NCBI GenBank assembly: GCA_051117555.1
Contig: JBNPEG010000023.1
Coordinates: forward strand, 1 to 50,783
Reading direction: 5' to 3'
Source: Elainellaceae cyanobacterium
GTDB taxonomy: Bacteria; Cyanobacteriota; Cyanobacteriia; CAZCXK01
Length of the DNA: 50,783 nucleotides
Shown here: one piece after another, positions 49,580 to 50,239 of the stretch
How the letters are laid out: the number at the start of each line of letters is the position of its first letter
How positions within the stretch are numbered: position 1 is the first letter of the stretch
Position numbers and translations under genes: made by a program
Notes under the pieces: model-generated
The model's input: the letters and a program-made list of their open reading frames with translations, nothing else
Databases searched by the model: none
Told to the model about the DNA's origin: nothing

Positions 49580-49993
49580 TTAAGGATTCTTATTATCTTT
49601 AATATCAAGCCTTATAGCGTGGAATGGCCCCAATTTTGCCGCAAGTGAAACGTTTTTATCTCTAAGTACCGCTGTGAAACAGACAAGGAAACCTAATATA
49701 AGAACCATGCCGAATACAGTACTCTGCCCGGTTAACGGCGGCGAGGTTTGGTCTTCTACAGAAATTAATGGTGTTGCGACATACTGTTCCTCCTCAACTG
49801 CTATCGTCTCAAGGGAAGGCTTATTATCAGCTACTCTCACACAGCTTCCCTCAGCAATCTTAGAGGAGTCACACCAAATTAATAGAGGCGGTGTAATGCT
49901 TGAAACTTGACTGAGGGAAACTCCGTTCTTGAGTAGCTGACTGTTAGCTGAATAGACCTCATACGACGAGGATGACGAATTACTTTGTAACAT
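49580..49993 (-). CDS. 137-aa hypothetical single-TM protein; predicted target of the adjacent mini-CRISPR RNA (candidate toxin)
   Basis: Strong RBS AAGGAG 6 nt before the ATG; hydrophobic helix VFGMVLILGFLVCFTAVL; downstream hairpin. Confidence 0.72.
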   Translation of the reverse strand: MLQSNSSSSSYEVYSANSQLLKNGVSLSQVSSITPPLLIWCDSSKIAEGSCVRVADNKPSLETIAVEEEQYVATPLISVEDQTSPPLTGQSTVFGMVLILGFLVCFTAVLRDKNVSLAAKLGPFHAIRLDIKDNKNP

Positions 49994-50085
49994 TTGTTAC
50001 TCCTTAATTATTTTCATCGTTCCGATTTGGTTTGGTAGACGCCATTTGAATTTTAGCCTCCAACTATCTGATTTGGCACTATGTG

Positions 50086-50094
50086 TGCTAAAAT
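50086..50094 (+). promoter_or_regulatory. Extended -10 promoter for the mini-CRISPR RNA
   Basis: TG-C-TAAAAT about 7 nt upstream of the first degenerate repeat. Confidence 0.55.
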
Positions 50095-50100
50095 TCGTGC

Positions 50101-50239
50101 AACATCTTCGCAAGGAGACGGAGGCAAACGCTTCTTAAGTGGGTTTACTGTTAGATGAATAGACAGCAACCTACTTCTTCCCCGCAAGGGGATACTTTGT
50201 GTAAAGAGCCATTCAACATCATTGGCTGAATGGCTCTTT
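50101..50239 (+). ncRNA. Degenerate single-spacer mini-CRISPR (crRNA-like regulatory RNA)
   Basis: Pseudo-repeat 1 CTTCGCAAGGAGACGGAGGC (50106-50125), ~39-nt spacer (50126-50164), pseudo-repeat 2 ...TTCCCCGCAAGGGGATAC (to ~50195). Both keep the GCAA hairpin of the main array repeat. Confidence 0.75.
50203..50239. terminator. Intrinsic terminator, possibly bidirectional
   Basis: Perfect 13-bp stem AAAGAGCCATTCA / TGAATGGCTCTTT with an 11-nt loop. Confidence 0.75.

Follow-up and report, generated by a model that had tools for sequence, protein, structure and literature searches.

The window analysed here is a whole contig (50,783 nucleotides, nt) of the 6.06-Mb genome of an Elainellaceae cyanobacterium, which is assembled in 256 contigs. 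It encodes a type III-D CRISPR-Cas operon with a main CRISPR array and, beyond the cas10 end of the operon and on the opposite strand, a mini-array in which two degenerate repeats (psiR1 and psiR2) enclose a single spacer-like guide (psiS). The guide is partly complementary to the predicted transcript of an orphan open reading frame (ORF), P0001, that lies between the mini-array and cas10 (Table 1). With moderate to low confidence, we read the mini-array as encoding a CreA-like guide of the type III-D system that leaves Cas10 silent.

Table 1. Features of the window and their positions.
Feature	Position	Strand	Remarks
Main CRISPR array	36529..37788	+	17 identical 35-nt repeats, handle ACGGAAAC
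Type III-D operon	39399..49405	-	Profile matches (Pfam, NCBIfam, PADLOC)
CARF-HEPN gene	39399-40706	-	
csx21	40722-41384	-	
RAMP gene	41345-42385	-	
csx19	42390-42854	-	
csx7-like	42824-43837	-	
csx7	43827-44687	-	
csm2	44711-45163	-	
csx10	45160-46401	-	
csx7	46368-47099	-	
cas10	47099-49405	-	
Terminator-like hairpin, then TTTTGTGGTG	49519..49570	-	12-nt perfect arms, 49529-49540 / 49559-49570
P0001, orphan ORF	49580..49993	-	137 aa
Anti-tag ACTGAGGG (plus-strand sense)	49910..49917	-	3′ flank of the target in the mRNA
Target site in the mRNA	49918..49957	-	nt 37-76 of the long ORF
Promoter-like site GTGCCA, 18 nt, TAAAAT	50050..50079	-	Adjacent to and divergent from the candidate promoter of the mini-array
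Candidate extended -10 promoter TGCTAAAAT	50086..50094	+	Putative, read from the letters
psiR1, degenerate first repeat	50091..50125	+	
Mini-array handle ACGGAGGC	50118-50125	+	8 nt, 3′ of the psiR1 hairpin
psiS, spacer-like guide	50126..50165	+	About 40 nt, begins AAAC (50126-50129)
psiR2, degenerate second repeat	50166..50199	+	
Terminator-like hairpin, then TTGTTATT	50203..50247	+	13-nt perfect arms, 50203-50215 / 50227-50239

The operon was assigned to type III-D by its content, namely Csx10 (Cas5-like), Csx19, several Csx7 RAMP subunits and a Csm2-like small subunit. The Cas10 large subunit was recognized by PF22335 (3e-19) and TIGR02577 (4.6e-45), Csx10 by TIGR02674 (9.7e-134), Csx7 by TIGR02581 (5.8e-71), and PADLOC profiles reported Csx19 (4.2e-57), Csm2 (3.2e-59) and Csx21 (9.4e-87). 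Cas10 contains the GGDD cyclase palm motif at residues 495-498, and its palm2 match is the only one in the genome; the CARF-HEPN protein contains an R-x6-H motif. The N-terminus of the Csx7 encoded at 43827-44687 aligns with solved chains of III-D Cas7 and Csm3, and the protein has an Asp in a G-S-D-L-P context that may correspond to the catalytic Asp of Csm3; for RNA cleavage, at least one Cas7 subunit must have such a residue. The main array has a period of 71-84 nt and spacers of 36-49 nt. A second array, on contig C22, has 19 repeats that match the 35-nt repeat at 100% (blastn-short), and an array on contig C163 belongs to a different repeat family.

The mini-array combines decayed and preserved parts. 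psiR1 is identical to the repeat at 15 of its 3′ 20 nt; its 5′ half, which overlaps the candidate promoter, shows no relation to the repeat. Its hairpin, CUUC-GCAA-GGAG, retains the CCCC-GCAA-GGGG stem through one double change (C-G to U-A) and one single change (C-G to U-G). psiR2 has a perfect CCCCGCAAGGGG hairpin, ATACTTTG as its handle part and a degenerate 5′ part. The two hairpins, at 50106-50117 and 50180-50191, are spaced 74 nt apart, inside the period of the main array. From the candidate extended -10 element, which was not flagged by a consensus promoter scan that requires a -35 box, transcription would begin at about 50101, immediately before the psiR1 hairpin, and, with the terminator-like hairpin as its end, the small RNA gene would measure about 145 nt. 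The fold of the mini-array RNA has a z-score of -5.35, with both repeat hairpins in the centroid structure. With two repeat-like elements, one spacer and array-like spacing, and with a first repeat that keeps its handle side and a second that is degenerate, the mini-array has the build of a CreA-type small RNA gene.

P0001 is preceded by AAGGAG, 6 nt before its ATG, and contains one strongly hydrophobic stretch (residues 92-110). No Pfam, NCBIfam or PADLOC family was found for it, and the ESM Atlas returned no usable feature match and no structural match good enough to name it, with a model pLDDT (predicted local distance difference test) of 0.50. As a 12-bp hairpin and TTTTGTGGTG follow its stop codon, P0001 looks monocistronic, and the promoter-like site at 50050-50079 is its own. 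Two copies of a 20-nt direct repeat with 75% identity, possibly a chance resemblance, were seen at 49996-50015 and 50250-50269 (plus strand); one spans the P0001 Shine-Dalgarno region, which is read from the other strand, and the second is just past the terminator hairpin of the mini-array.

Predicted pairing between the guide and the P0001 mRNA

Type III effectors target RNA. To locate the counterpart of the guide we compared handle plus spacer with the whole genome (120,904 chunks), and the best non-self match was found at 49908-49957, about 170 bp from the mini-array, with a score of 40 as against 34, 31 and 30 for the next matches. The spacer alone ties at 34 with a gapped match on contig C103. 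A better target elsewhere was considered and rejected, the next-best sites on C103, C165 and C224 being gapped matches at background level. Since the target lies on the same DNA strand as the mini-array, the guide is antisense to the minus-strand transcript. The match spans nt 37-84 of the ORF and thus falls inside the transcribed region and not in the promoter-like site at 50050-50079.

Guide positions 1-39 are complementary to the target in three blocks, with an overall identity of about 75%. Guide 1-6 matches at offset 0 (5/6 identical), guide 7-15 at offset +2 (8/9 identical) and guide 22-39, the strongest block, at offset +1 (17/18 identical, the single mismatch being at position 30). With blocks at these three offsets two indels are needed, and they were found as two extra target nt at guide position 6 and one nt fewer within guide 16-18. 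The original prediction had allowed for a single 2-nt bulge after AAAC; the bulge is there, and the second indel is needed in addition.

Reports on type III effectors describe every sixth base of the guide (-1, 6, 12, 18 and so on) as flipped and unpaired on the protein backbone (PMC13294483, PMC11734703). In the present pair, mismatches and length changes are located at -1, 6, 12, 18 and 30, where the gap within 16-18 can be placed at 18 without loss, though not uniquely. When the indels are confined to flipped positions, 35 of the 37 pairing positions (-5 to -2 plus 1 to 39, multiples of 6 excluded) are paired, as Watson-Crick or G-U, and only +5 and +21 stay unpaired. The true 6-nt phase was the best of the six, with 2 unpaired positions vs 4-5, and in 4000 simulations in which decay was random and the substitution and indel counts equalled the observed ones, a fit this good had P = 0.023 with the tag and P = 0.051 for the spacer alone. 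We regard this as moderate evidence that the geometry of the effector has shaped the guide-target pair. On one side the similarity to the target runs out at about -9, close to where Cas6 is expected to cut, and on the other at +39; both points are near the expected ends of a mature CRISPR RNA (crRNA). The possibility that the target is itself a decayed repeat-spacer unit was rejected, as no repeat-like sequence stood out within 49400-50090 on either strand, where all eight comparisons (8/8) fell below the 95th percentile of shuffles.

As free RNAs, the guide and the 5′ region of the mRNA are computed to form a duplex of -42.8 kcal/mol (z = -5.9), a value reached by none of 500 shuffles. The function of such a duplex is a prediction, and it would also suit a Cas-independent antisense pair akin to a type I toxin-antitoxin system, where the small RNA blocks translation or triggers decay by an RNase and the hairpins are mere stabilizing stem-loops of CRISPR origin. 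Bulges are no obstacle to free RNA pairing, P0001 has its one strongly hydrophobic helix, and the arrangement, a small RNA divergent from a gene for a membrane peptide, resembles that of trans-encoded type I pairs. Left unexplained by an antisense pair of this sort are the repeat-derived architecture of hairpin plus handle at array-like spacing, the position on the cas10 side, the 6-nt phase of the defects and the end of the similarity at the expected Cas6 cut. Typical type I toxins are also smaller than the 137 aa of P0001 or the 86 aa of its public gene call. We consider this explanation quite unlikely.

The handle, the target flank and a proposed silent guide

The mini-array handle, ACGGAGGC, departs from the handle of all 17 main-array repeats, ACGGAAAC, solely at -2 and -3. 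As the 17 repeats of the main array and the 19 on C22 are all canonical, the GG variant is confined to the mini-array. The target flank reads ACTGAGGG, and AAAC follows both the handle (50126-50129) and the flank (49918-49921); the letters and coordinates in the original prediction were all correct. Also borne out was the identity of handle and flank at six of eight positions (-8, -7, -5, -4, -3 and -2), where the canonical handle would score 4/8. GAGG in the handle thus coincides with GAGG in the flank at -5 to -2, in register with guide 1-6, as in a 'self' RNA. In the genome's full set of 12.1 million 8-mers, the frequency is 0.0034 for GAGG at these positions and 0.0035 for identity at six or more of the eight positions, or about 0.01 over the three registers of the alignment. 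The match is suggestive and was noticed post hoc.

How the match arose is less clear-cut than its presence. The two handle changes had been proposed to create it; the gain from 4/8 to 6/8 is real, and the direction of change was assumed, with shared descent or a 4-nt insertion fitting equally well. The end of psiR1 can indeed be read as such an insertion (ACGG-AGGC-AAAC vs the canonical ACGG-AAAC), the target has the same layout, and none of the 17 array spacers shown begins with AAAC. Either the two segments share descent or flank and tag have co-evolved, and the pairing available at present would be the same either way. In the precursor RNA (50118-50135, plus strand), GGAGGC of the handle can pair with guide 5-10 (GCUUCU) around an AAAC loop, in a hairpin that gains a G-C pair from the A-to-G change at -2; an intramolecular fold could thus be a further use of the handle change.

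The rule on which the self-silencing proposal rests is published: pairing of -2 to -5 limits Cas10 and cleavage persists (PMC13294483, PMC8682760, PMC7214462). The report on a type III-D2 structure describes -1 as flipped out, with the pairing faces of tag positions -2 to -5 exposed; an anti-tag pairs with -2 to -5 only in self RNA, Cas10 is then inactive, and self and non-self RNA are cleaved alike (PMC13294483). The limiting effect of this pairing on Cas10 is referred to elsewhere as 'a common property' (PMC8682760), and for LdCsm RNA cleavage is reported to be unaffected by the anti-tag (PMC7214462). The III-D2 report further describes hydrogen bonds to bases -1, -4, -5 and -7, with -2 and -3 only stacked (PMC13294483), and by analogy the changes in the mini-array handle may sit at the two positions that lack base-specific contacts.

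Taken together, these data suggest a mechanism that we put forward tentatively, as the likeliest of the explanations considered though short of probable, in which a CreA-like III-D guide silences the neighbouring membrane-protein gene at the RNA level and is read as 'self'. The mini-array would give rise to a crRNA-like guide composed of the 8-nt tag ACGGAGGC and about 40 nt, cut by Cas6 at both retained hairpins and loaded by the III-D effector, the only type III effector of the genome. The guide would pair with the 5′ part of the mRNA of its divergent neighbour, a putative orphan single-pass membrane protein, and pairing of tag positions -5 to -2 with the 3′ flank would let the effector read this mRNA as 'self'. 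The Cas7 subunits would then bind and cut the mRNA with Cas10 off, so that no cyclic oligoadenylate is made and the CARF-HEPN RNase stays untriggered, with additional damping of Cas10 expected from the +5 mismatch and from the bulge at position 6. The neighbour would thereby be silenced post-transcriptionally and in dependence on the effector, by RNA cleavage in place of promoter binding; as in CreTA and CrePA, loss or inhibition of the effector would de-repress it. The sequences themselves show the match with its genome-wide rank, adjacency and strand, the retained hairpins and the intact GGDD and HEPN motifs; that the guide is transcribed, processed and loaded, that the mRNA is cut with Cas10 silent and that the protein is toxic are steps that we infer. 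With GGDD and R-x6-H intact, an unsilenced self-guide would be costly. The psiR1 stem, kept by compensatory change, and the perfect psiR2 stem amid decay speak for the proposed mechanism, and so do the nearby antisense match that ranks first in the genome, the ends of the similarity, the promoter-like and terminator-like elements of both the mini-array and P0001, the agreement at -5 to -2, the 6-nt phase of the defects, the confinement of the handle changes to -2 and -3 and the lack of a self-match for the second mini-array described below. The wider claim is more doubtful, namely that a natural III-D effector acts as a Cas10-silent programmed RNase on a host mRNA and holds a candidate toxin gene off as long as the effector is intact, which would make it the first RNA-level type III counterpart of CreTA and CrePA and the first regulatory use of the tag rule.

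For self-silencing as originally predicted, the published rule, the GGDD and R-x6-H motifs and the top genome-wide antisense match are in favour, and the two indels, the +5 mismatch and the bulge are not. The latter are also the basis of another explanation, in which the guide is active in the effector and Cas10 is silent through broken tag-proximal pairing (the +5 mismatch, the bulge at 6 and weak pairing up to 21), only guide 17-39 is bound and cut, and the tag identity is inherited or accidental. In VmeCmr, single mismatches in segment 1 are reported nearly to abolish cyclase activity, in agreement with III-D and III-A complexes (PMC8682760), and tag-proximal mismatches are described to depopulate active Cas10, with cleavage failing only inside the mismatched segment (10.1101/369744). 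The 17/18 block at guide 22-39, whose lone mismatch is at flipped position 30, also speaks for it, and the identity at the buried positions -7 and -8 suggests descent. Against silencing by mismatches only stand the agreement at all four positions from -5 to -2, with a chance of 0.0034 per register, and the blocks 1-6 and 7-17, which are too well matched for an unused region and fit the 5+1 rule at their own offsets. We hold this explanation to be unlikely.

Several observations weigh against the proposed tag-based silencing. By analogy with the reported mismatch effects, weaker activation of Cas10 could result from the bulge and the +5 mismatch unaided. Continuous in-register pairing of spacer and protospacer was not found; the tag/anti-tag match is in register with the guide 1-6 block only, and if the register of the strongest block is taken instead, only -2, -3 and -6 are shared between tag and flank. 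Owing to the two indels, tag pairing and the 22-39 block cannot both be in register on an undistorted backbone, and a bulged target on a type III backbone was not documented in the literature examined. The handle-flank identity extends to -7, -8 and -9, where the bases are buried or outside the mature RNA, so that matches there are not explained by selection for pairing and point to shared descent over selection. Shared descent of the two segments appears to fit the sequences as well as adaptation of the handle to the flank. The comparison draws on a III-D2 complex that is a fused variant, has a different tag and comes from another organism. The only match to the Cas6 family in the genome is on a different contig. 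As to the target gene, its public gene call is an 86-aa protein that starts at GTG codon 52, downstream of the target, which places the target either in the early coding region or in the 5′ leader. The codon score of P0001 is -0.04 per codon vs +0.11 to +0.16 for four cas genes. At E <= 0.01, P0001 matched in three of 401 genomes of the class, namely its own and two with weak matches that contain in-frame stops, and in a set of 5.8 billion proteins its sole match was its own 86-aa gene call. The DNA of the cassette (49560-50230) matched one of 61 genomes, its own, and none of 13 loci with a related Cas10 has a comparable mini-array. The case of the mini-array and its target rests on a single locus in one genome.

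Another explanation is a decaying relic, in which a self-targeting spacer or a short duplicated handle-plus-spacer segment would have survived because it was disarmed by mutation, and would now be functionless. The guide-target identity of about 75% with two indels is comparable with the 15/20 identity between psiR1 and the repeat, conservation was absent wherever searched, the coding statistics of P0001 are weak, and a second, target-less two-repeat remnant is found 250 bp away. A relic would hardly be expected to keep both hairpins, one by compensatory change and one perfectly, while their flanks decay, or to be framed by promoter-like and terminator-like elements. The adjacency of guide and target is unexpected for a spacer drawn from a random site in 6 Mb, and the defects cluster at flipped positions (P of 0.02-0.05). 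We judge a relic to be fairly unlikely.

Known systems and related loci

CreA RNAs, the guides of CreTA and CrePA, are described as two-repeat mini-arrays in cas loci, with the handle side of psiR1 kept and psiR2 degenerate (PMC9458426, PMC12737573, PMC10120712), and the present mini-array resembles them in this respect. As with CreA, it seems to form a small transcription unit of its own, here predicted from motifs, it shows partial complementarity to a nearby target at the cas locus, an imperfect match to an adjacent, divergent non-cas gene, and its design would, as proposed here, permit binding by the effector without destructive activity. According to a 2025 review, CreR occurs in types I and V-A, and CreTA and CrePA work by having a Cascade-type effector repress a promoter (PMC12737573). 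In CreTA and CrePA, Cascade or Cas12a blocks promoter DNA through a protospacer adjacent motif (PAM) and a seed-only match. Unlike in these systems, the effector here is of type III-D, the target is an mRNA, and cleavage of RNA and a tag/anti-tag safety device are proposed; the match lies away from the promoter-like site.

The tag pairing also has a known counterpart in type III self-discrimination, where tag positions -2 to -5 can pair with the 3′ flank of the RNA. The natural 'self' RNA is an antisense transcript of the array, which matches the whole canonical tag, whereas here an mRNA of the host from outside the array matches a variant tag at 6/8 positions, with all four pairing positions included. 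In the survey of Shmakov et al. (2023), mini-arrays are reported in 10-16% of type III loci, with 0.16 for III-D in its Table 1, and without targets found for those of type III (PMC10120712). In contrast to the surveyed type III mini-arrays, an adjacent target can be identified here. The locus further resembles trans-encoded type I pairs in that a divergent small RNA would pair imperfectly, over about 40 nt, with the 5′ region of a membrane-protein mRNA, and differs from them in that the small RNA is built from parts of a CRISPR repeat and lies beside cas10. For the DNA-binding effectors of types I, II and V-A, crRNA-like RNAs with regulatory or 'guard' roles are established, and none was described for type III in the open-access literature searched; a preprint on Saccharolobus remarks on the scant knowledge of host regulation by type III-B.

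If the proposed mechanism holds, type III effectors could be domesticated for the control of host mRNAs, and RNA cutting could be uncoupled from the Cas10 alarm by making use of the tag/anti-tag check, which might be tunable through the two tag positions not read by the protein. Signal-free type III knock-down tools would gain a design rule from nature, and type III loci an addiction module or an anti-anti-CRISPR guard. If the cassette is a relic, it would still clearly document the disarming of a self-matching type III guide.

To get clues on the conservation of the cassette, we examined the 13 loci in which Cas10 is 53-74% identical to the present one. Arrays were seen in four of them (L005, L009, L011 and L013), and repeat-like sequence within 2 kb upstream of cas10 in L011 only; the conservation expected of a CreA-like module in related cas loci was not observed. 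Within the taxonomic family, Cas10 was found in one of four genomes, its own. A metagenome scan with an 18-nt pattern of guide plus target returned 12 loci, all of them chance, pattern-only matches. In L011, a Chamaesiphon metagenome-assembled genome, an ordinary-looking array of three repeats (2408-2620, minus strand) is divergent from the III-D cas10 and near a transposase-like ORF; its third repeat has a changed loop and handle and a kept stem, its first spacer is a near-perfect palindrome, and its spacers gave no self-match within the locus.

The locus of the closest Cas10 relative (L005, 74% identity) has a bearing on one more explanation, a CreR-like autoregulator, in which P0001 would be the leader of the cas operon and cutting of its mRNA would lower cas10 expression by read-through coupling. 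P0001 and cas10 share a strand, with P0001 175 nt upstream, and crRNA-like autoregulators of cas operons are described for types I and V-A (PMC12737573). Between P0001 and cas10, though, stand the 12-bp perfect hairpin and TTTTGTGGTG, and L005 has a different gene of 320 aa before cas10 and no such cassette. We regard autoregulation as very unlikely.

Other features of the window

A second mini-array was found at 50449-50560 (plus strand), and the contig ends 220 bp further on. Its two repeats belong to a different repeat family, with handle ACTGAAAC; their 3′ 22 nt are common with the C163 array, and the stem of the second repeat is broken. Its 34-nt spacer gave no self-match in the genome above background (top score 30), and a nearby match is thus not a general property of orphan repeats here.

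A tandem repeat occupies the entire gap between the end of the main array and the CARF-HEPN gene (37871-39386); its 29-bp unit, present in about 52 copies, includes the cyanobacterial GCGATCGC palindrome. Upstream of the main array, 28268-35933 encodes a TPR-CHAT protein, a DUF928 protein, a CHAT-CHASE2 protein, a DUF1822 protein and a sigma-70-like protein, and two very long back-to-back ORFs of 2874 and 4188 aa are found at 4633-25844 on the minus strand.

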